A stretch of 61,072 bases of DNA from a virus (Duplodnaviria; Caudoviricetes): positions 1-61,072 of IMG/VR virus record IMGVR_UViG_3300005831_000006; one strand, given 5' to 3'. Shown in pieces: positions 7,387 to 50,919 of the stretch. The stretch's first letter is position 1. Each line of letters begins with the position of its first letter. The position numbers and the translations under genes are program-made. The notes under the pieces are model-generated. The model made no database searches and was not told where the DNA came from. It was given only the letters and a program-made list of their open reading frames with translations.

Positions 7387-8118
7387 TTAATAACCCGTAT
7401 TGTAATTAAAGATCTCTTCGAAACGATTTGGGTCCTTAAAGTAGTCGGCTTCCATAACTTCAAGTAAGTCATCACGCTTTGATTCATAGTCATTAAAACC
7501 GGCAATATAATCCTTTAACTCTATACCACCAAAACTTCCTCCATCAGACATAGTATAAAATTTATAATATAAAGCAATCTTACAATCAGCTTCATACAAT
7601 GATTTTACCATTTCGTGGTATCCAGTACTAATCTCTTCCAATTTCTTTACTCTATACATAGATATAGTAAAATCCATATGAGTTTTAGCAATTGGAGAGA
7701 TTACGACTATATTCGGAGCCTCAAATGCAGCTGTATACCGTACATCTACCATATTGGTAGCAGAAACAGCTTTCGAAATTAATGAATCGACTAAACCATT
7801 ATGACTATATACTCCGCCTCCGATATAGTTTCTCGGGTAATGGAAAGTTGATATACCTGTATAAGGGTATAAATTATCCATCATCGGTATTACATAACGG
7901 GTAGAATTATTATTTCTACCTAGAGAGTCAGAAGATAATACAGCCATACCTTGATTGACATTAATACCCTTTACTACAGATGGATAAAAACTACTTATAG
8001 CTGTAAGCGTCTCTTCCATCAAAACATCAATCCAAAATTCTGTATCGACAGCTTTAAATACTGGATCTGGTAGACGTTTTTTCATTCTACTTATCAACGT
8101 ATTTATTGTTAAAGACAT
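7387..8118 (-). CDS. virion structural protein (neck/head-completion candidate)
   Basis: 243 aa; late-type motif at 8150-8161; GGAGG RBS; GGIELKD-type C-terminal segment reminiscent of T4 gp13-like neck proteins. Confidence 0.45.
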   Translation of the reverse strand: MSLTINTLISRMKKRLPDPVFKAVDTEFWIDVLMEETLTAISSFYPSVVKGINVNQGMAVLSSDSLGRNNNSTRYVIPMMDNLYPYTGISTFHYPRNYIGGGVYSHNGLVDSLISKAVSATNMVDVRYTAAFEAPNIVVISPIAKTHMDFTISMYRVKKLEEISTGYHEMVKSLYEADCKIALYYKFYTMSDGGSFGGIELKDYIAGFNDYESKRDDLLEVMEADYFKDPNRFEEIFNYNTGY

Positions 8119-8691: not shown

Positions 8692-9075
8692 ATGTCAAAG
8701 AGCAACAAGACCAAGACAATCACCTTCGAGAGTCAACTCGAACGAATGTCAGAAGAACACGGTATTCCAGTTCAGGATAGTTTGAACGTTTTTTCCGGAT
8801 ATAAGAAAGTAATGGAATCGATTATCACTGAGGAAGTCGGTAAAGATACTGCCGATTTTGAATTCTTTACACCACTCGGAATTCTTGGATTTAAGAAGGT
8901 TCCTGAGTCGGAGAGAATCAACACAGCAGATGGTACAAAATTCATTGCTCCGGAGCATTACAATACAAATTATGCATTCCCTGTCAGATTCATTGCTCTG
9001 GCGAATGTAAATGTTGATTTCAGTAAAGTCCCGACAATGTCCGATATCACGAAATCGAAATTGAAAGTAGCTTAA
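8692..9075 (+). CDS. HU/IHF-like histone-like DNA-binding protein
   Basis: helical N-half, TPLGILGFKKVPESERINTADGTKFIAPE resembling the HU beta-arm; AAGGAG RBS; biased codons; TATATAT motif at 8613. Confidence 0.65.
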   Translation: MSKSNKTKTITFESQLERMSEEHGIPVQDSLNVFSGYKKVMESIITEEVGKDTADFEFFTPLGILGFKKVPESERINTADGTKFIAPEHYNTNYAFPVRFIALANVNVDFSKVPTMSDITKSKLKVA

Positions 9076-9090
9076 TACTATCACCGGTTT

Positions 9091-9119
9091 AGAGTGGGGT
9101 AAAACCCACTCTTATTTTT
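9091..9119 (+). terminator. intrinsic terminator
   Basis: AGAGTGGG-gtaaaa-CCCACTCT followed by a T-rich tract. Confidence 0.75.
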
Positions 9120-9219
9120 ATTTTTATTTAATTGGAGTTTAACTCCTTCTTTTTATTAGTATTATAGAGAAAACAATTTAATACGATGGAAATTGTATAT
9201 TAAAAAGGATTATTGAATT

Positions 9220-11988
9220 ATGACAAATAGTTATGAAATAGTAAGATTAAAATTAGTTAATTTTACTCATTTTAATTCAATTTTAGGATATCCTGAATTT
9301 GAGATAAATAGAACACCTGGGAATCCTATAATCGTATTAGTTGGAGGTAATGGTAGTGGAAAGTCATTATTGATGAGCCACTGGTCACCAAAACCTACCG
9401 AGAATACTAATAATCGTAAAAGAGTTATTAATGAAAAAGATAACGATGAAGAATCTATAAAAGAAGTTGATATTATCAAATATGATATAAACAATAAACC
9501 GACACATAAATATTATTGTCGTATCATATATTCTTCATCTACTAATTGTAGTATAATTGAAGAAAATCTTTCTACTGGTTGTAGAGTTGAACTTAATGAA
9601 AATGGTTTAGTCGGTTCTTATGAAGATATATTAAATGATGTTTTTGATCTTGATAAACGGTATGTTAATATCACATATTTGTCACCTCAAATAACATCAT
9701 TAGTATCAATGAGTCCAAGTATACGATACGGATATATATCTTCATGGTTACCGGATATATCATCATATATAAATGCTTATAAGACTATTTTCAAAAAGAT
9801 AAATACGACCAATAGACAAATAAAGTTATTGGAAAGTGATATTGGTGATATATCTGTAGAAAAAGTTGACAGAGATATATCTATGATGACATCGAAAATG
9901 ACTACTTTAGAGAATAAAATCGAAGATCAAAAAATAATACGTATGAAACTAACAGTCGTACGTGATAATTTAGCATCAATATCAAAAGATATATTACGTA
10001 AAAGTATCGAAATTACATTACGTAATAAATATATTCTAAATAAAGAGTATAATCTTTTAATCGATTTAGATTCTAGAAGTAAAAAATATCGTGGTAAAAA
10101 TGGTGATGATAAATTAAAACAAGATATCACTATAAATAAACAAGAAAGAATTGATATTAAAAATCGAGTTGAATGGATAGGTAAATCCATCGACGAGCAA
10201 CGAATACGTTTAAAAGAAGTTGAATATAATCTTGGTTTATTGAAGGATAATGGGGAATCATTACCGGATATAAGCGTCATGCTTGAACGAATTGAGGAGT
10301 CTTTAAAAGAATATGAAATAATCATGTTAAAATATAAAGACAAATATACATTTATTGATGAAATAGATGATAATTTTACTATGAGAGAATTTAAAATAGT
10401 AGAATCATTTATGAATTTGATTTATGAAAAATGTAAACGTATACAAGATCTTATATCTATACCAAAGCTTGATAATGTATCATCGTATTCTGAATTAATT
10501 GATAAACGTATATCAGAATATAATGAGAAAATAAAAGAACTTGATATAAGAGCTAATAAATTGCATGAGAGTATCTCTATACTTAAAAATACACCAATCG
10601 ATGAATCTATTTTACAATTAATACCTGATTTTTGCGATACAACTAGATGTGGAGTTATATTAGAGATCAATAGATTACTTTCTCCGGATAAAGAAATAAA
10701 TAAACTCCAAATAGAACTTGAAAGTATATATTCATCTAAAGCTGAATATATTTCTGAACTTGATAATATGGAGCAGGAGGTATCAAATATAGTATTATCT
10801 TTGAATTATGTAAGTGATATAAATCATTCCATAACAAGAGATAAAGAATATATATCGATGCTTCCAAGTTTGTTTAAAGAATCTTTTTCAGGATCTATAT
10901 CATCCATTATTTCAAATTTAAATATCCTTTTAAGAGATATTGACGTAATAGGTGAATTCACATCTATAAGAGATCAGTTTAAATTATATACTGATCAATT
11001 AAAGACACTTAAAGAAAAAGAGATATCATTAAAATTTGTAAGAAATATGAATAGTGATATCACGAATATTACATCAACAATTGATTCTATGGGCAAGGAA
11101 AGAAGAATCTTACTTGAGAAGGATGTATTATTAATAAAAGATATTGAAATTTTAGAGGAGGTACAAGAATCTATAAATAACATTAGGGAAAGAATTGACG
11201 TATATAATGTATCATGTTATAATCAGATAGATATACATGAAAAAATAAAAAATTTATGTGCTGATTGGTATTATCGTGAGAAAATCTCTCGAAAAATATC
11301 TGAACTTGATGTCTCCATAGAATCAATGTCATATGATTATAGAAAAACTAAATCAGATATAGATTCATTAAGGACTACATTAAATACGAAAAAATCTCTT
11401 CTTGATATGAGGGATAGATTGTTATTATCTATAAATAATATGAACTTGTTATTAGATGCATGGAATCCTAAAAGTGGAATTCCAAGTTTCTTTATCAAGA
11501 ATTTCTTAATAAAGGTCCATATGTATTCAAATGTGTTTTTAAAGAAATTAAATGGGGATGCACTTAAAATAAGTAAATTTGAAATCGGTAGTAATGCCCG
11601 TGAGTTTCCAATTGAGATACTAAAAGAGGACGGATCAATAATCCCAGATGTGTCTCAATGCAGTGAGGGTGAAATAGCCCTTCTCACATTAGCAATTTCT
11701 TTAGCACTATTGAATATAGTTAGAACAACTGGTGGTTATAATATTCTTAGAATAGATGAATTGGATTCCCATCTTGACACTATGAGAAGAAAACAATTTG
11801 TTGAGATTATCCAGGAACAGTTGGATGATTTAAATTCTAAGCAATTATTAATTATAACTCACAATGATAACTTTAATGACGTTCCGGCAGATATTATATT
11901 ATTCCCTGGAGCATCGAAAGATGATTCTGGATTATCGAATAAAAATATACTGCTTGATATGCGTCATATTTCTTTAGATAAATATTAA
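9220..11988 (+). CDS. sbcC: SbcC/Rad50-like SMC ATPase
   Basis: Walker A GGNGSGKS, long coiled coil with central CDTTRC hook, signature CSEGE, Walker B/D-loop IDELDSHLD, H-loop IITH. Confidence 0.9.
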   Translation: MTNSYEIVRLKLVNFTHFNSILGYPEFEINRTPGNPIIVLVGGNGSGKSLLMSHWSPKPTENTNNRKRVINEKDNDEESIKEVDIIKYDINNKPTHKYYCRIIYSSSTNCSIIEENLSTGCRVELNENGLVGSYEDILNDVFDLDKRYVNITYLSPQITSLVSMSPSIRYGYISSWLPDISSYINAYKTIFKKINTTNRQIKLLESDIGDISVEKVDRDISMMTSKMTTLENKIEDQKIIRMKLTVVRDNLASISKDILRKSIEITLRNKYILNKEYNLLIDLDSRSKKYRGKNGDDKLKQDITINKQERIDIKNRVEWIGKSIDEQRIRLKEVEYNLGLLKDNGESLPDISVMLERIEESLKEYEIIMLKYKDKYTFIDEIDDNFTMREFKIVESFMNLIYEKCKRIQDLISIPKLDNVSSYSELIDKRISEYNEKIKELDIRANKLHESISILKNTPIDESILQLIPDFCDTTRCGVILEINRLLSPDKEINKLQIELESIYSSKAEYISELDNMEQEVSNIVLSLNYVSDINHSITRDKEYISMLPSLFKESFSGSISSIISNLNILLRDIDVIGEFTSIRDQFKLYTDQLKTLKEKEISLKFVRNMNSDITNITSTIDSMGKERRILLEKDVLLIKDIEILEEVQESINNIRERIDVYNVSCYNQIDIHEKIKNLCADWYYREKISRKISELDVSIESMSYDYRKTKSDIDSLRTTLNTKKSLLDMRDRLLLSINNMNLLLDAWNPKSGIPSFFIKNFLIKVHMYSNVFLKKLNGDALKISKFEIGSNAREFPIEILKEDGSIIPDVSQCSEGEIALLTLAISLALLNIVRTTGGYNILRIDELDSHLDTMRRKQFVEIIQEQLDDLNSKQLLIITHNDNFNDVPADIILFPGASKDDSGLSNKNILLDMRHISLDKY

Positions 11989-12853: not shown

Positions 12854-12887
12854 AATAATGGAGGGATTAACCCTCCATTATTTTTTT
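12854..12887. terminator. bidirectional intrinsic terminator
   Basis: AATAATGGAGGG-attaa-CCCTCCATTATT between convergent genes. Confidence 0.8.
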
Positions 12888-13545
12888 AATAATATTCACA
12901 ATCCTCAAAACAAAATTCAAGGTCATCAAAATCGACTACTCTTGGCATATTAGTACAAAATATTGAATGTAAGGGAACAACCTTTTCCTTCTTCTCATGC
13001 CCTTTAAATTTTGCAGATTGTATAGAAATTTCATTTTTTTTCTTTTTTCTGATATACTCATCAAGAGCACTATCAATATCGGAAACAAATCCTATATTAT
13101 CTATCTCTTGAATCAAATTATTTTTAAATGGATTTAATTTATCACTATTTACAACAGTTTCACCAATCCGTTTAATGTATTGAGATTCTATCCTGCTAAA
13201 GGCTATAGGAGCAGGTTTATATCCATGAATATTCAATTTCTCATTCGGAGTGAAATATTCATTATAATATATTATAGAATTTCGTAATTTAGTGAGATCA
13301 CTATCACTATTAATTATAACATTTATATCTCTGTTTAAAATATTTATTATATTCTTTACAGAAACAATGCCTTTAAATGGAGTATTGCCTTTTATTTCCC
13401 TAATATATCCATTATGATCAATAGTGACATATAAATTCACTTCAATATTCTCAAACCTATCGCTTATTTCTTCAAGGCTTGGAATATTAAATGCTCTATT
13501 TTCTGTTGATACATTGTTGTAAATGGGTGATGAATTTAAATCCAT
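12886..13545 (-). CDS. hypothetical protein
   Basis: 219-aa ORF in a minus-strand operon. Confidence 0.55.
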   Translation of the reverse strand: MDLNSSPIYNNVSTENRAFNIPSLEEISDRFENIEVNLYVTIDHNGYIREIKGNTPFKGIVSVKNIINILNRDINVIINSDSDLTKLRNSIIYYNEYFTPNEKLNIHGYKPAPIAFSRIESQYIKRIGETVVNSDKLNPFKNNLIQEIDNIGFVSDIDSALDEYIRKKKKNEISIQSAKFKGHEKKEKVVPLHSIFCTNMPRVVDFDDLEFCFEDCEYY

Positions 13546-14179: not shown

Positions 14180-14431
14180 TTAAAAAGTAAATAATGAGTT
14201 GTCTTCTATTAAAGATTCGATAGATGTATCAAGTTTTTTACTTGATTCTTCTAAAGTAGATTCTTTATCAGGTTTTACATCACCCTTTTCTGCAAATAAT
14301 AATTCTACATCATCATAAAATGATGTATGATTGTCATTACTATGCCTCGATAATGGATCACCAGCGTTTGTCGCTGGACTTGTTGTTAAATCAAATCCTT
14401 CGAATAAACGGTCAAATAGATTTGATGCCAT
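14180..14431 (-). CDS. small acidic hypothetical protein
   Basis: GGAAGG RBS; late-type motif at 14473-14484 (minus). Confidence 0.6.
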   Translation of the reverse strand: MASNLFDRLFEGFDLTTSPATNAGDPLSRHSNDNHTSFYDDVELLFAEKGDVKPDKESTLEESSKKLDTSIESLIEDNSLFTF

Positions 14432-19825: not shown

Positions 19826-19886
19826 GATTTGAATATTTTAATGGGGTATAATCCCCATTAAAATTATTTATCAAAGGATTTCAATA

Positions 19887-20372
19887 ATGCTTAATATTAC
19901 AGAAGATCAGAAATTAAGATTCAAAAATATTTTAAATAAAGAATTTACAGGAGCTGTAAAGTTCATAAATATCACTGTATTGAATGATATACCTGATATT
20001 ATTGAATATCTTCTTGTTAATAATACGTCATTTAATACTTTAATAAATTTTGATGGTATTTACGAATTAGTTCCGGAAGGATTTGCTACAAATGGCGGGT
20101 ATAAACTTAAAGAAGCTATTTACTGTAACAAAAATATTGAGCATATAACTATCGCAATTGTAGCCAAGAATGAACTTGATATCCTGAAACAATTGGTATA
20201 TTTAAAAACCAAACTTATAACCTTTGCAATTACAAAACAGGTAAGATTGGCAATAGGTAATAATGTAAATATCCTTACATCCGATAAAGACAGTGTTTTA
20301 TACAAAAAAATAAGTAGTAAATACATTGTCGATACAACCTTCAAATATTTCAGTGAATTATTTATAGTTTAA
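19887..20372 (+). CDS. hypothetical protein
   Basis: 161 aa, AAGGA RBS, terminator-like hairpin at ~20380. Confidence 0.6.
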   Translation: MLNITEDQKLRFKNILNKEFTGAVKFINITVLNDIPDIIEYLLVNNTSFNTLINFDGIYELVPEGFATNGGYKLKEAIYCNKNIEHITIAIVAKNELDILKQLVYLKTKLITFAITKQVRLAIGNNVNILTSDKDSVLYKKISSKYIVDTTFKYFSELFIV

Positions 20373-20476
20373 ATAATGAAATGGGGATTATACCCCATTT
20401 TATTTAAAACGTTTTTTAACTATATATAAAATGGAGTATATTTATCATTTGAAACATTTACACACATAAAGGATTC

Positions 20477-21091
20477 ATGATGAAGAAGAAGTATGTAAGA
20501 AGAAATGTACAACAAATATCATCTATCGATGGTTCTTTAATTAACACCTTTACATCAACATGGGAAGCATCTAGAAACACCGGTATAGCACAGTCAAACA
20601 TCTGCAATGTTTGTAATGGTAAACGTGGATATGCAGCAGGGGGATTTATATGGCGTTTTGAGAATGATAAGAAAAAGATTAATCTTGATCTTATTAATAA
20701 GAATAAAAAAGCAAAACCTGTACATAAAATAGATTCTGAAACTGGTATGATATTATCCAGTTATGTTAGTATAGCCAGTGCAAAAAAGGATACTAATGTT
20801 GAGGATTCTAATATTTCCAGAGTTTGTATTTTAAGATACGGTTTTGCCGGAGGTTATTTTTGGAGATATGTTAATGATCATAAATGGGATTATGAAACAT
20901 GTAAAAAAAGAACGTATGCTAAATATAAACCCGTTATTCGTATAGATATAGAAACAGGTGAAATTACAGGAGAGTATAAAAGTATAAGCGAGGCTGCAGA
21001 TCGAAATAAAAATGATCCATCAGGTATTTCGAAATGTTGTCGTAGTGATTTACACAAGATAAGTGCTGGATATTTATGGGCATTCAAATAA
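20477..21091 (+). CDS. triple NUMOD1/IENR1-domain DNA-binding protein (no nuclease domain)
   Basis: three repeats of V-x-(Q/K/R)-I-(S/D)...G......S..(E/S)A........I..(V/C)C.....AGG(F/Y)-x-W. Confidence 0.8.
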   Translation: MMKKKYVRRNVQQISSIDGSLINTFTSTWEASRNTGIAQSNICNVCNGKRGYAAGGFIWRFENDKKKINLDLINKNKKAKPVHKIDSETGMILSSYVSIASAKKDTNVEDSNISRVCILRYGFAGGYFWRYVNDHKWDYETCKKRTYAKYKPVIRIDIETGEITGEYKSISEAADRNKNDPSGISKCCRSDLHKISAGYLWAFK

Positions 21092-33392: not shown

Positions 33393-35162
33393 ATGTATAA
33401 ATCCATAATAAAGACCCTTTATCTGAAACCTGTGTATAATACCGATCAGCGGACTAGCCGTATAGAAAAAATACGAGACGATGTGTTATTATATCTGGTC
33501 GGAGATAGTGAGGGTAATAGAGAATTAAAAATGATAAATAATCCTAAGTATACTTTCTATTTAGCAAAAACGGATTATAAATATCATAGATTGTCAGCTC
33601 CGAAAGACGATCTTATACCAATAGTATGCGAGTATAGTAAACGTCATGATAGAATGGCTGAAGCTGTTGGTTTAAAAGATGAGTATAATTTAGCAAAGAA
33701 AGATTGGAGCACTAAACGTGATTGGATACAAAGAAATTTATACAATAATCCTAAGTTATATCATGCGGACTTTGATATCGAGGATGATTTTAGATTAAGA
33801 TTCAATGAAACTAATGGCGAACATGCTTCAGATATTGAATATGCAACGAGCTTTACAGATATAGAAACAAGAATGGATTTAGGCGATGTTAATCAGTATG
33901 TAGCAGATGCGCCTATTAGTAGTATTTGTCATATTGATAGTAAGTCTGAAACAATTTATGCAATGGTTTTAAATGATGATAATGTCCCGGAAGTACGTGA
34001 AACATTTAATGATCTTCAAAATTATGTAAGTCATTTAAAAGAATTTCTACAACAGATACGAGAAAGTGCTATTGAAAGAATAATAAAGGATAAAGGAAAT
34101 CCGAATAACATTCATTCATATAAGTTCAATTTCAAATTCTATCTATGTGAGACTGAAGCTGAATTAATATCTCAGTATTTTAAAGTAATTAAAGATACAT
34201 CTCCTGATTTCTGTGGTATTTGGAATATATCTTATGATATGAACTATATAAAGAATCGTGCTGAGAAACTTGGTTTAAATATGGCAGATTTGGCTTCATC
34301 AGACCTAATTCCTCCAAGTCATAGATACTTTATGTATGCAGAGGATTCGGAACGTTTTAGAGCTAAATCACAAGTTCATTATTCGAGATATTTCGACAAG
34401 GTGCTATCTACATCCCCGACTCAATGGTACTGTCAAATGGCGATGCATAGTAATCTAAGAAAAAGATTCTTGGAGAATGATTATAAATTGGATAGTATTG
34501 GTGATAAGTATGCCTACATCAATAAAGTTGATCTTGAAAAACAGGGATATACAATTAAGAATGTGTATAGTAAGAATTTTAAATTATTCTTAGACTATGC
34601 AATTCTTGACGTTATTGTTCAGTTTATGATTGAACGTGTTAATCAGGATGTTCAGAGACAGATGATTAACTGTAAAGATGTAAACTTTTTTCATGGATTA
34701 AGAAAGACTTTTACAATTAAAGGAGAATTATCAACCTTTTTAAAAGATAAAGGTGAAATTATAGGCAATAATAAAACCTATGATATTAATGAATCGATAC
34801 CGGGTGCAATAATTGCATCTCCTCAAAATATAGTTCAGAAAGGTGTTAAATTACTTGGAGTCGATACTCATATTTATAGAAATTGTGTTGATTTTGACAT
34901 AACTTCAGAGTATCCAAGTTTAATAATAACCTACAATATACTAAAAACTACATTGTATGGGAGGATTATTTCAATATATCTCCAAAAGGATGTAAATGGT
35001 ATGGTTATTAATACACCGATATCAAACGGATCTGATTTCAATAAAATGCTACAATCAATTGAAACATCTATTTTCGATATAGGTTCTAAATATTTTGGTT
35101 TATGTAGTATTGATGAAATAGTATCTGCTATTGAGAAAGACAGTTGCAATATCACTAAGTAA
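33393..35162 (+). CDS. family-B DNA polymerase, N-terminal subunit of a split enzyme (3'-5' exonuclease + motif A)
   Basis: ExoI TDIET, ExoII WNISYD, ExoIII YAILD, IPGA and DFDITSEYPSLIITYNI (motif A); no KxxxNSxYG or YGDTDS before the stop. Confidence 0.85.
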   Translation: MYKSIIKTLYLKPVYNTDQRTSRIEKIRDDVLLYLVGDSEGNRELKMINNPKYTFYLAKTDYKYHRLSAPKDDLIPIVCEYSKRHDRMAEAVGLKDEYNLAKKDWSTKRDWIQRNLYNNPKLYHADFDIEDDFRLRFNETNGEHASDIEYATSFTDIETRMDLGDVNQYVADAPISSICHIDSKSETIYAMVLNDDNVPEVRETFNDLQNYVSHLKEFLQQIRESAIERIIKDKGNPNNIHSYKFNFKFYLCETEAELISQYFKVIKDTSPDFCGIWNISYDMNYIKNRAEKLGLNMADLASSDLIPPSHRYFMYAEDSERFRAKSQVHYSRYFDKVLSTSPTQWYCQMAMHSNLRKRFLENDYKLDSIGDKYAYINKVDLEKQGYTIKNVYSKNFKLFLDYAILDVIVQFMIERVNQDVQRQMINCKDVNFFHGLRKTFTIKGELSTFLKDKGEIIGNNKTYDINESIPGAIIASPQNIVQKGVKLLGVDTHIYRNCVDFDITSEYPSLIITYNILKTTLYGRIISIYLQKDVNGMVINTPISNGSDFNKMLQSIETSIFDIGSKYFGLCSIDEIVSAIEKDSCNITK

Positions 35163-35263
35163 TAAATGGGGAAGTGATTCCCCATTTTTTTAATGTATTA
35201 AATTCATAATAAACACTATAACTAATTATATATAAATACTTGTATAATTAACAAGGAGATGTT

Positions 35264-35332
35264 ATGATTTATCAAAATGAGCCGCCATGGGTACCTCCAA
35301 TTGATTCTGATGATGAAGATTGGGTACTCTGA
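35264..35332 (+). CDS. 22-aa acidic micropeptide MIYQNEPPWVPPIDSDDEDWVL
   Basis: AAGGAG RBS 5 nt upstream, TATATAT motif at 35227, terminator hairpin at 35347-35376; below the ORF-track size cutoff. Confidence 0.65.
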   Translation: MIYQNEPPWVPPIDSDDEDWVL

Positions 35333-35373
35333 AAAACACAAAGATAAAAATGGGGAAATAATCCCCATTTTTT

Positions 35374-35742
35374 TTAATCAAAATCAACTTCATCTTCAGT
35401 TATTAGTCCTGCATTTTGTGTAATTGCTGGGACATTTAATTTCCCGGAATTTTTTAATTGCTGTCGACGAATTTCATCATGATTATTTATAACGATTCTT
35501 CTACCATTTTCATCAGTAATTAGTACTTTTTTAGCTGTAGCGTTGAAACAATCTCTATTTGCTATTTTATCTCTGTGTTGAACTACAATGCGATTATTAA
35601 GTTCAATATCACTTTCTTTAAGATCTATTCTAATGAGATCCTCAACAAGCATCTGTTCTATAGAACTTGCATAAGTGATTTCTTTCTTTTTAACAACTGC
35701 AGTCTCTTCAACAACTTCTACTTGCGAATTAGTGTTTTCCAT
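35374..35742 (-). CDS. hypothetical protein
   Basis: 122 aa, GAGG RBS inside the upstream gene. Confidence 0.6.
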   Translation of the reverse strand: MENTNSQVEVVEETAVVKKKEITYASSIEQMLVEDLIRIDLKESDIELNNRIVVQHRDKIANRDCFNATAKKVLITDENGRRIVINNHDEIRRQQLKNSGKLNVPAITQNAGLITEDEVDFD

Positions 35743-35744
35743 AA

Positions 35745-36167
35745 TTATACCTCTAATACCTGTGGATTTACAATTTTTACATAATTATTATTTTTTACTA
35801 TATCTGCAGTAAATTTGAAATTTGGAATATTTTCAACTGATATAGAGATAGATACGTTTGGATTTGTTATATCTTCATCTCTAATAATATCAATAGATAC
35901 CTGCTCTCTTCGATATCTACTTATATTCTCCCTAATTTCAGCTAGAGAAGTATATTGTGATTCAGAAAAATGGATACTTAACAATGACTCCATACAACCT
36001 ATATCCGGAAAGTCTATTAACGTACCTCTTTGCATCTGTATTTGATTAAAAATACTTAATATTATCTGATTAAACTTTACAATTCCATGATCGTATATCT
36101 TTTTAACATCCTCATTTTCAAATACAGGTATTATATCAACAACAGTTATATCATTTTTTATTGCCAT
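35745..36167 (-). CDS. baseplate wedge protein (gp25-like candidate)
   Basis: QMQRGTLIDFPDIGC resembles the gp25/GPW T..GE....P.FG motif; size fits. Confidence 0.5.
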   Translation of the reverse strand: MAIKNDITVVDIIPVFENEDVKKIYDHGIVKFNQIILSIFNQIQMQRGTLIDFPDIGCMESLLSIHFSESQYTSLAEIRENISRYRREQVSIDIIRDEDITNPNVSISISVENIPNFKFTADIVKNNNYVKIVNPQVLEV

Positions 36168-36289: not shown

Positions 36290-37102
36290 ATGAGTTCGAC
36301 CAACATAACTACAGAGATAAAAAAGATATACAAATTTCGATGTCCAGATTGTCAATTGAAGTTTACATCGATCGAATCTCTTATAAACCATATTGATGAA
36401 AAACATAAAGATAAAATTCCAGATGGAATCTCTACCAAGAGATATATTTTCAATAGAAAATATAATAAAACTATTGGTGAATGTGTAATTGATAAACTGG
36501 AGACTTTATGGAATGAAGATAAAGGACATTATGAAAGATATTGTTCTGATCGATGTCGTTTAATAGCACGAAGACGATTCGTTAACAATTGTAAAAGGAC
36601 TCTAGGTACAGAAAATCCTGCTGCTGACCCAGAACATCAGATGAAAGCCATAAAAGGTAGAAGTAATTCTGGGGTATATACTTTTAAAAGTAGCGGAATT
36701 ATAGGTTACTCCTCAAGTTATGAACTTGACTTTTTGAAATTTATTGATGAAGATATGAGTATAAAATCAAGTGAAATTGAACAATGCTCTATAATATTTA
36801 ATATTATAATGGACAATGTAAAGAAGTTTCATATTCCTGATTTTTATATGCCTACTTATAATCTAATCATTAATATAAAGGATGGTGGAGATAATCCAAA
36901 TAATAATCCGAATGTTGCTGGCGATGGCCATTTAAGGCAACGATTAGCCGATGCATCAATTATTACAAATGGTCATTACAACTATATCAAAATTGTAAAT
37001 AAGGAGTATGCGAATTTTGTTAATTTGATAGAACTTATTACAAAAAAGAGTTTTTCATCTGAATCAAATTTAAAAAATGTCATAATATCAATCCCGGAAT
37101 AG
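36290..37102 (+). CDS. C2H2 zinc-finger + TnsA-like PD-(D/E)xK nuclease-fold protein
   Basis: CPDC...H....H zinc finger, YCSDRC, SSYELDF and HIPDFY...INIKD; late-type motif at 36249-36260. Confidence 0.65.
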   Translation: MSSTNITTEIKKIYKFRCPDCQLKFTSIESLINHIDEKHKDKIPDGISTKRYIFNRKYNKTIGECVIDKLETLWNEDKGHYERYCSDRCRLIARRRFVNNCKRTLGTENPAADPEHQMKAIKGRSNSGVYTFKSSGIIGYSSSYELDFLKFIDEDMSIKSSEIEQCSIIFNIIMDNVKKFHIPDFYMPTYNLIINIKDGGDNPNNNPNVAGDGHLRQRLADASIITNGHYNYIKIVNKEYANFVNLIELITKKSFSSESNLKNVIISIPE

Positions 37103-38022: not shown

Positions 38023-38050
38023 GATAATGGAGGATAAAACCTCCATTATC
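38023..38050. terminator. bidirectional intrinsic terminator
   Basis: GATAATGGAGG-ataaaa-CCTCCATTATC between convergent genes. Confidence 0.7.
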
Positions 38051-38217
38051 TATTTTGTATAAAAAAAGACGAAAATAGCATTTCGTAAGTCCTTATGTAC
38101 CAACGACTTACAACGGTCGAAAAAACCATATTTTACAAAAATCGCTTCAGATGCAATATAATCATCAATATGGGTAATTGTACTAATTAAGTATTTAAGC
38201 TCATCTGAGCGAGTTTA
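38044..38217 (-). repeat. 174-bp dispersed repeat, copy 1 (inverted relative to 50746-50919)
   Basis: hand alignment with the reverse complement of 50746-50919: near-identical apart from scattered substitutions and a flipped 13-bp centre. Confidence 0.95.
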
Positions 38218-47035: not shown

Positions 47036-47206
47036 TTTTTTCTCATAAAAAGTAGTTAAATTACATTATTTATTATCATATTTCGCCATTTATCAAAATA
47101 TATATTCCATTTTATGCCCTTTTTAAAACCCTTAATTATATATATAGTATTTGCGAAGCAAATCTGAGCGAAGCGACACAACCACAATTCTATGTAGGAA
47201 ACCAAA

Positions 47207-47247
47207 TATAGACAGATACGACTCTCAAGGAGTCGTATCTATCTATA
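47207..47247. other. long hairpin in an intergenic strand-switch region
   Basis: TATAGAcAGATACGACTC-tcaag-GAGTCGTATCTaTCTATA, 18-bp stem with one mismatch and no T-tract. Confidence 0.85.
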
Positions 47248-47384
47248 CCATTGAAATCAATCTAATGATTATAATCGTTAATCATCGCATAGAAAGAAGG
47301 GAAAATCCAGTTGAGTGGAAAAGTGGATTACCCAAAAAATTTTGATATATTAGGATAAATAAAGATTTCTGCAAGAGATAGATA

Positions 47385-47432
47385 AGTTTCTTATTAGTTA
47401 GTAGTTTCTTATTAGTTAGTTATTAGTTTCTC
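47385..47432. repeat. tandem 18-bp repeat AGTTTCTTATTAGTTAGT x2 plus a partial copy
   Basis: read directly at 47385-47402 and 47403-47420, then TATTAGTTTCTC. Confidence 0.9.
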
Positions 47433-47598
47433 AATAGGTTTAATTTAAAAATATTTATAATATAAAATATTAATAGATTAAAGTTACCAAACCGTATATT
47501 GTATATAATATATGGGATATCAATCAAAATAAATTAAACCTTTATTGGATTAATTTTACTACACACAATGTTTGTACTACTTATGAAAGGGTGTTTTT

Positions 47599-50745: not shown

Positions 50746-50919
50746 TAAAGTCACTCAGATGAGCTTAAATACTTAATTAGTACAATTACCCATATTAATG
50801 ATTATATCTCATCTGAAGTGATTTTTGTAAAATATGGGTTTTTCGACCGTTGTAAGTCCTTATGTACCAACGACTTATGAAATGCTATTTTTGTCTTTTT
50901 TTATACAAAATAGATAATG
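50746..50919 (+). repeat. 174-bp dispersed repeat, copy 2
   Basis: reverse complement aligns to 38044-38217; preceded by AACA-TTTAAA-TG at 50731-50742. Confidence 0.95.

Follow-up and report, generated by a model that had tools for sequence, protein, structure and literature searches.

A candidate 22-codon mini-gene between two terminator hairpins in a variable slot of an apparent AR9/phiKZ-type jumbo phage

The locus

The viral record IMGVR_UViG_3300005831_000006 (Duplodnaviria; Caudoviricetes) is a single contig of 61,072 bases with a guanine-plus-cytosine (GC) content of 29.6%, and this whole stretch is called the window below. The subject of this report is a 22-codon open reading frame (ORF), the mini-ORF, located in the gap between a rightward DNA polymerase gene and a leftward gene for a 122-aa protein (Table 1). 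The original prediction, made from the letters alone, placed here a stand-alone transcription unit of the kind that gene callers miss, consisting of an upstream hairpin, an AT-rich motif, a ribosome-binding site, an ORF richer in GC than its flanks and a terminator. All of these parts were found again, and the anatomy of the unit is supported by the motif, the Shine-Dalgarno (SD) sequence, an unstructured start, codon usage and the terminator. Direct observation covers the features of the sequence, the non-random way in which they are placed and the variability of the slot. With about even chances, the unit would be a real, expressed, lineage-specific mini-gene in a fast-changing slot, comparable to the morons and PeSL modules discussed below.

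The genes of the window point to the type of phage. A 1474-aa protein matches phage multisubunit RNA polymerase (RNAP) beta subunits (phrog_3148, E 2.9e-167), and further genes encode a NAD-dependent ligase, an SbcC-like protein, two HNH endonucleases and, 1.8 kb from the mini-ORF, a polynucleotide kinase/phosphatase. The polymerase gene upstream of the mini-ORF encodes one piece of a split family-B DNA polymerase (PolB), with matches to Pfam DNA_pol_B_exo1 (E 2.2e-7) and to the DNA polymerase family phrog_3011 (E 3.4e-44). Its best named relatives are found in the Bacillus phages AR9 and PBS1 (27% identity), Yersinia phage phiR1-37 and Staphylococcus phage S6. In full-length relatives of 51–69% identity, this N-terminal piece likewise has a gene to itself, and its length stays constant (586–592 aa); the C-terminal piece is not adjacent to it and was not located in the window. 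Because of the RNAP beta-like gene and a split PolB nearest to those of AR9 and PBS1, the source is assigned, by its gene content, to the uncultured AR9/phiKZ-type jumbo phages, a group with its own multisubunit RNAPs.

Table 1. Features of the gap and its neighbours (positions in the window)
Feature	Position	Strand	Basis or remark
N-terminal, exonuclease-containing piece (589 aa) of split PolB; upstream gene	33393..35162	+	Pfam, PHROG
Intrinsic terminator hairpin; ends polymerase gene, upstream boundary of unit	35164..35187	+	stem and T-run
TTCATAATAA block, 10 nt upstream of promoter-like core	35203..35212	+	common to L021 and L033
Promoter-like motif TAATTATATAT, AT-rich, apparently clade-specific	35223..35233	+	motif statistics, relatives; 30 nt before ATG
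SD AAGGAG, 5-nt spacer to ATG	35253..35258	+	form and spacing as in other genes
22-codon ORF MIYQNEPPWVPPIDSDDEDWVL*	35264..35332	+	ORF list, codon score
Bidirectional terminator hairpin and T-run; ends unit and convergent 122-aa gene	35346..35376	both	scans, fold
Convergent neighbour, 122-aa protein with acidic tail ...EDEVDFD	35374..35742	-	ORF; homologue in L001/L002
gp25/GPW-like baseplate-type gene after the 122-aa gene	35745-36167	-	atlas search, score 0.90-0.94, TM 0.54-0.67

Start signals, codon usage and composition of the mini-ORF

The start of the mini-ORF resembles that of an ordinary gene of this phage, which typically has AAGGA(G) 5–9 nt before ATG. The same SD form and spacing occur at the genes at 8692, 36290 and 53112. 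On both strands of the window, AGGAG followed after 4–9 nt by ATG was found at 20 sites; 12 of them open ORFs of 127–1746 codons, and among the remaining eight the mini-ORF alone lies in intergenic DNA. In the predicted fold of the transcript, the SD and the start codon are unpaired.

Codon usage was scored as log-odds trained on the long genes of the window, and the mini-ORF reached 0.515 bit per codon, more than any of 202 spurious ATG-initiated ORFs of 18–30 codons (mean -0.116, standard deviation 0.195). Among 807 windows of 21 codons taken from real genes, this score falls at the 88th percentile. Over the same DNA, the remaining five frames scored from -44 to +0.8. The GC content at the three codon positions is 0.64, 0.32 and 0.27. 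The contrast with the flanks is confirmed by 60-nt windows, with values of 0.40–0.45 over the mini-ORF as against 0.12–0.18 just upstream; the overall value is 0.406, and 0.4% of 2995 other intergenic 69-nt windows, as against 7.4% of all windows, are at least as rich in GC. Six residues of the encoded peptide are acidic and none is basic; it contains four prolines and two tryptophans, and its C-terminus reads DSDDEDWVL. A peptide of 22 residues should be unfolded and should act only as a linear motif.

Chance occurrence of the ORF, in a long spacer separating two independent terminators, would be a very unlikely explanation of these signals. In its favour, the mini-ORF was picked from a scan of the whole 61 kb, and SD-led ATG ORFs of 21–34 codons occur three times inside coding DNA, which gives a rough intergenic expectation of about 0.1–0.3. 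Such an origin is at odds with the coincidence of four features, namely a motif at its usual distance, a terminator after the stop codon, the codon score and the GC island, and with the presence of a second such unit in the same slot of the related loci L001 and L002.

The function could also lie in the DNA or RNA, the ORF being incidental. The unit would then be a promoter-stem-loop module for recombination or insulation, or a non-coding RNA of approximately 130 nt. A study of T4-type phages by Arbiol and colleagues describes modules of promoter and terminator stem-loop (PeSL) that are abundant in hyperplastic regions and whose recombining copies shuffle ORFan genes (PMC2839356). In the window, a hairpin and the motif also stand before the HNH gene at 20477, and another motif site, at 47133, is followed by about 200 nt that lack an SD-led ORF. 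The mini-ORF itself holds an internal hairpin (GGUACC..CCAAU / AUUGG..GUAC), which derives from the repeated TGGGTAC of its two W-V codon pairs. Against an RNA function, the region folds no better than shuffled sequences (z -0.55 for the ORF part and +0.85 without the terminator). Rfam gave nothing at gathering score in the whole window, the region itself yielding only sub-threshold, terminator-driven matches, and no antisense target longer than 16 nt was found within the 61-kb window. An incidental ORF would moreover be unlikely to possess a consensus SD at ideal spacing, gene-like codons in one frame and a GC island, and this alternative is judged improbable. Blastn and tblastx comparisons of the spacer with the window and the fetched loci, which looked for a repeat or a remnant of another gene, returned only the AT-rich motif.

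Terminator hairpins bounding the unit

The upstream hairpin, AAATGGGGAA-GTGA-TTCCCCATTT followed by a T-run, lies 2 nt past the stop codon of the polymerase gene and has a stem of 10 pairs, four of them GC, before TTTTAATG. The downstream hairpin proper spans 35346–35372, with its T-run extending to 35376, and starts 13 nt past the stop codon of the mini-ORF. A consensus terminator scan reported it in the minus orientation alone (11 pairs); its predicted role as a plus-strand terminator was brought out by a separate scan and by the RNA fold, with an 11-pair stem followed by U8. Between 33000 and 38000, five terminator-like calls were obtained as against 1.3 +/- 1.1 in shuffles, and all five are the two gap hairpins. 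With a T-run at each, the unit has a terminator of its own and a stem-loop that insulates it from the upstream gene.

The two gap hairpins are near copies of each other, including their flanks (AAATGGGGAA..TCCCCATTTTTTTAAT). A pattern common to both has three matches at these two places, one hairpin matching on both strands, as against 0.03 expected. The gap is also unusual among the 11 convergent junctions of the window. Seven of these have gaps of 25–37 nt, each of which was inspected and contains one hairpin; the gap studied here, at 211 nt, is the longest of the 11 and contains two.

The ATGGGG-N-CCCCAT hairpin family has four copies in the window, two being the gap hairpins. The other two (19841–19858 and 20381–20398) form a perfect 18-nt inverted pair, which encloses a gene for a 161-aa protein (19887–20372) without a family match. 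The promoter-like motif of the HNH gene at 20477 starts 18 nt past the second hairpin of this pair. The arrangement looks like a shuffled cassette.

The promoter-like motif

The AT-rich motif upstream of the mini-ORF has a strict form, [TA]AA[TC]TATATAT, which matches the window seven times. All seven matches are on the plus strand and all are intergenic, intergenic DNA making up 9% of the window; the expectation from 300 intergenic shuffles was 0.57, with a maximum of 4. Six of the seven sites lie 30–83 nt 5' of a plus-strand gene of at least 127 aa or of the mini-ORF, and two of the genes served are those of the HNH endonucleases. The minus-strand structural genes lack the motif. It is this stricter form and its placement, and only these, that are non-random.

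An identical motif core was found in the related loci L027–L036, in which the PolB piece is approximately 30% identical; there it follows terminators and precedes an SD-led ATG by 20–60 nt. By visual reading of the contexts, 12 of 15 distinct sites in these loci are followed by SD and ATG, several of the 15 being orthologous copies in near-identical contigs. The closer relative L021 (PolB 66% identical) has a similar AT-rich promoter-like region directly past its PolB piece. The TTCATAATAA block recurs, with almost the same spacing to the core, in L021, again directly past the PolB piece, and in L033. The L033 copy is the reverse complement of the start region of a leftward gene that has no homologue in the window; the window block may be a relic of that gene.

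Taken from these placements, TAATTATATAT reads as a clade-wide promoter-like element, and in silico the mini-gene would possess a promoter of its own. An early, or at least not late, class is a reasonable inference, because the motif precedes HNH and other plus-strand genes and is absent before the minus-strand structural genes. A consensus scan found no sigma-70-type site on the plus strand that could serve the mini-ORF. From the TATAAT at 35243–35248, transcription would start inside the SD.

The seventh motif site, at 47133, is followed by a doubtful 64-codon ORF starting with TTG, and the next gene is about 450 nt away. In the region 47133–47598, the motif is succeeded by about 200 nt of GC-richer DNA with a strong hairpin, GATACGACTC..GAGTCGTATC, and without an SD-led ORF; a tandem 'tttcttattagttag' repeat comes next, and Rfam gave no match. 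This region is a candidate small RNA or leader.

The slot in related phages

No close relative of the window was found by DNA among 50,697 phage records, and scans of viral and metagenome contigs with the PolB piece alone gave nothing. Alignment-based scans yielded relatives of at most 66% identity, to which a scan with the neighbouring 270-aa protein added none closer. A protein search recovered PolB pieces of 60–69% identity on ENA/Logan contigs (P0002–P0012, up to 15.7 kb) and a 100% identical PolB fragment on a 39.8-kb contig (P0001). The slot behind the polymerase gene was compared in relatives with PolB pieces of 51–66% identity, the nearest being 66% identical.

In L021 (66%), the promoter-like region is followed by an ORF of at least 74 codons that is cut by the contig end. 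In L025 (66%), a gene beginning MFKF is followed by a terminator, an AT-rich region and an ORF with an SD that runs for at least 38 codons (MMKLKKNPFLPEMD..) and is likewise cut by the contig end. The contig of L023 (51%) ends after an MFKF gene, a terminator and AT-rich sequence. L001 and L002 (57%) contain the longest arrangement: the PolB piece, a 142-aa gene, the 154-aa MFKF gene and a terminator, then an AT-rich stretch, TGGAGGA, a 10-codon ORF (MGPFLPPYGK*) and a further terminator, and finally a 321-aa gene, a bidirectional terminator and homologues of the 122-, 140- and 270-aa genes of the window. Identities to the window are 57% for the PolB piece, 44% for the 122-aa, 43% for the 140-aa (E 3e-39) and 52% for the 270-aa protein. 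For the genes that follow PolB in L021, L025, L001 and L023, the window contains no homologue. Judged from these comparisons, what lies between the conserved flanks turns over, as in a variable-region cassette.

The mini-unit of L002 (7697–7870, with its ORF at 7801–7833; the same in L001) constitutes a second terminator-bounded, SD-led mini-ORF in the same slot. When the window and the fetched loci were searched for intergenic SD-ATG ORFs of 6–45 codons with a terminator, one was found in the window, in addition to that of L001/L002 and a few others, and such ORFs are rare in this material. Another locus, L035, has TAATTATATAT, an SD, a 28-codon basic ORF (MIKRIRKLF...) and its own terminator at 1435–1560.

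This turnover also bears on the main rival explanation, in which the mini-ORF is a stub left by the decay of a once longer accessory gene: a deletion would have joined its surviving promoter, SD and first codons to a terminator, leaving a sequence that is perhaps transcribed and translated but functionless. The gene turnover in the slot agrees with such a history, as does the L021 ORF behind a similarly placed promoter-like region. The L025 ORF carries near its N-terminus a motif (..NPFLPEMD..) shared with the mini-ORF, and L001/L002 keep 10 codons; an N-terminal position of the shared motif is what 5' remnants would show. Flanking hairpins that are near copies would be expected after recombination between terminators, and conservation of the peptide was found nowhere in the searches. 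On the other side, the codon score peaks in the C-terminal half, where decay is not seen, and a consensus SD and an in-frame stop codon just 5' of the terminator are retained. Two lineages independently retain an SD-led, terminator-flanked mini-ORF though most convergent gaps measure 25–37 nt, and there is no similarity to the L021 ORF (p 0.73). A stub is considered unlikely, yet it is the rival to be taken most seriously.

Kinship of the encoded peptides

The N-termini of three ORFs from the slot fit the pattern P-[FW]-[LV]-P-[PE]-[IMY]-[DG]: PWVPPID in the window, PFLPPYG in L002 and PFLPEMD in L025. Ungapped BLOSUM62 scores were compared with 3000 composition-preserving shuffles. The resulting p values were 0.012 for the window and L002, 0.008 for L002 and L025, and 0.072 for the window and L025, the latter two peptides being in register from the initial Met; for the window and the L021 ORF the p value was 0.73. 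The shared motif fits either a common ancestral gene that was shortened twice or the motif itself as the functional part.

Further matches were rejected. A match of the peptide (E 0.013) in five whole records of relatives lies inside a large GC-rich gene and was judged to be due to chance. The 38-aa fragment of L025, compared with 1.84 billion representatives, gave three matches to repeat proteins, with 4–5 stretches each, also judged to be chance. The pattern NPFLPEMD had one match in viral contigs, a chance one that is out of frame and falls in the final part of a T4-like polymerase gene.

Comparison with known systems

Lambdoid morons are autonomous promoter-gene-terminator units, located between genes of conserved modules and differing from their flanks in base composition. 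The unit in the window is likewise a promoter-gene-terminator arrangement between two genes, with a GC content unlike that of its flanks. Morons are usually expressed from prophages by the host RNAP and encode proteins of ordinary size, whereas this unit resides in a jumbo phage of virulent type and encodes 22 residues.

T4-type PeSL cassettes are reportedly described by Comeau and colleagues in 2014. In the study by Arbiol and colleagues, these modules likewise combine a stem-loop with an early-type promoter beside small ORFans, in a variable region between conserved genes (PMC2839356). Near-identical copies that are able to recombine are a further trait of PeSL modules, and the gap hairpins, as well as the inverted pair around 19887–20372, could be such copies. 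The two differ in the promoter: a clade-specific AT-rich motif, presumably read by the multisubunit RNAP of the phage, stands here in place of a sigma-70-like early promoter. The host phage is of AR9/phiKZ type and not T4-like, and the cassette is known here from sequence and not from observed mini-circles or products of recombination.

The early promoters of the AR9 virion RNAP offer a comparison for the motif. In the AR9 report, these promoters are extended AT-rich elements with the consensus AAATATATATTAT-N6-G, highly conserved before early genes that include one of homing-endonuclease type with a promoter of its own, and the untranslated regions are at least 26 nt long (PMC5312081). The leader of the mini-ORF is of the same order of length. 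The likeness to the AR9 promoters is one of kind only, the consensus being absent at 35223–35233. The same report describes the genomes of AR9 and phiR1-37 as containing uridine (PMC5312081). The window gives no sign that its phage uses DNA with deoxyuridine.

With regard to the peptide, Stp of phage T4 is a precedent, with a length of approximately 26 residues. This peptide inhibits the restriction enzyme EcoprrI (PMC1484252), and it illustrates that a phage peptide of such size may serve as an early effector that binds a host enzyme. Nothing ties the peptide of the window to restriction enzymes, and the two are likened by size, not by sequence.

The original prediction had proposed a peptide for host takeover or anti-defence and had also invoked the C-terminal tail of SSB and acidic DNA mimics. 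The tail of bacterial SSB is an Asp-rich run ending in ...DDDIPF (I/L-P-F). The peptide shares an acidic run followed by hydrophobic residues, and differs in that it ends in W-V-L and lacks the Pro-Phe end. Ugi (from phage PBS1), p56 and Ocr are folded acidic DNA mimics with domains of about 56 residues or more (56–84 aa for Ugi and p56), whereas the peptide, with 22 residues and four prolines, is too short for a beta-sheet fold.

A leader peptide was also considered. Ribosomes pausing at Pro-Pro (E-P-P-W, V-P-P-I) would modulate the terminator, with read-through either into antisense of the baseplate genes or into the plus-strand genes from 36290. Diprolyl motifs such as PPW are pause sites that depend on EF-P, and the mini-ORFs of the window and of L002 both have Pro-Pro and end 11–19 nt before the terminator stem. 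This regulation, with either target, appears extremely unlikely: the next co-directional gene, at 36290, is about 900 nt away and lies beyond two minus-strand genes, and the predicted fold contains no alternative antiterminator pairing of the kind found in attenuators. A ribosome at the stop codon of the mini-ORF would, given the size of its footprint, not reach the GC stem.

Proposed unit and its weighing

If the unit is an expressed mini-gene, its transcription would be separated from the polymerase gene by the terminator hairpin of the latter and driven by the phage-specific AT-rich promoter, starting a few bases past 35233. The predicted product is a monocistronic RNA of approximately 130 nt with an unstructured 5' end and AAGGAG-N5-AUG, ending at the bidirectional hairpin 13 nt past the stop codon. 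It would be translated into a very acidic and probably unfolded peptide of 22 residues. Recombination at the two near-identical hairpins probably brought the cassette in or remodelled it. In this scheme, translation, the activity and timing of the promoter and all that concerns function are inferred from sequence.

Several results limit the scheme or weigh against it. The motif TAATTATATAT, when allowed up to one mismatch, is not enriched window-wide (23 found, 29 expected). Matches to the AR9 consensus AAATATATATTAT-N6-G are likewise no more frequent than expected (48 in the window as against 51.7 at up to two mismatches), and promoter activity and timing are putative because the motif does not match this experimentally determined early consensus. 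Of the 10.8 bits of the codon score, 8.5 come from GAT GAT GAA GAT and one further GAT (GATGATGAAGAT); the score largely reflects the acidic run. The conservation check named in the original prediction, a tBLASTn search with the peptide, gave no match in 50,697 phage records and only short chance matches, none significant, in 62 fetched loci, and the back-translated pattern EPPWVPPID had no match in viral contigs. The slot past the PolB piece differs in each relative read. The DNA of the three mini-ORF regions aligns no better than shuffles (p 0.30, 0.79 and 0.17), and the kinship of the peptide motifs, which is weak and was noticed post hoc, is suggestive at most.

As to function, the peptide may be a short linear docking motif, with P-hydrophobic-hydrophobic-P-P as its core and W-V-L at the end of its acidic tail, that blocks a binding groove of some host or phage protein at an early stage of infection; this proposal is doubtful. 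A bolder version, with only a slim chance of being correct, is that divergent jumbo phages keep ultra-short SD-led genes (22 and 10 codons), bounded by terminators and placed in one and the same slot beside the polymerase gene, that encode a minimal free-standing docking peptide with a common core. Such a peptide would be made early and would block a groove of a replication or repair protein of the host or the phage, the acidic W-V-L tail of the window peptide acting as an SSB-tail-like competitor. On this bolder version, few known phage effectors would be as small.

If the peptide is made, the unit would exemplify micro-genes dropped by standard gene callers, the usual minimum of which is about 30 codons, and would indicate that jumbo phages with their own RNAPs build PeSL-like mini-cassettes as in the gene shuffling of T4-type phages. 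If the ORF is only a stub, it would be a record of recent gene loss in a hyperplastic slot, which is ordinary. The promoter-like motif and the variable slot are more solid by-products than the function of the peptide. Across an uncultured clade, the motif appears to mark a transcription class of plus-strand genes (replication, HNH and ORFan), and it could guide annotation and host-independent expression studies.

Neighbouring genes and other observations

The 122-aa protein encoded by the convergent neighbour has no Pfam or PHROG match; the 44% identity to its homologue in L001/L002 corresponds to E 2e-17. The L002 homologue (9006–9476, minus strand) ends in an acidic-aromatic tail, ...YDDDDFIFED, and acidic-aromatic tails also occur on the window proteins encoded at 12886–13545 and 14180–14431. 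The 270-aa protein encoded at 36290–37102 on the plus strand has an N-terminal C2H2-like zinc finger and matches the endonuclease family phrog_15137 (E 2.7e-36), with a weak match to DUF7487; it is kept at the same position in L002 with 52% identity.

An inverted repeat of approximately 175 nt, in two pieces that are 93–94% complementary, occurs at 38044–38217 and 50746–50919. Its arms are intergenic and 12.5 kb apart, and they enclose a segment with the RNAP beta-like gene. An invertible or mobile segment could account for it, and so could a feature of the assembly.

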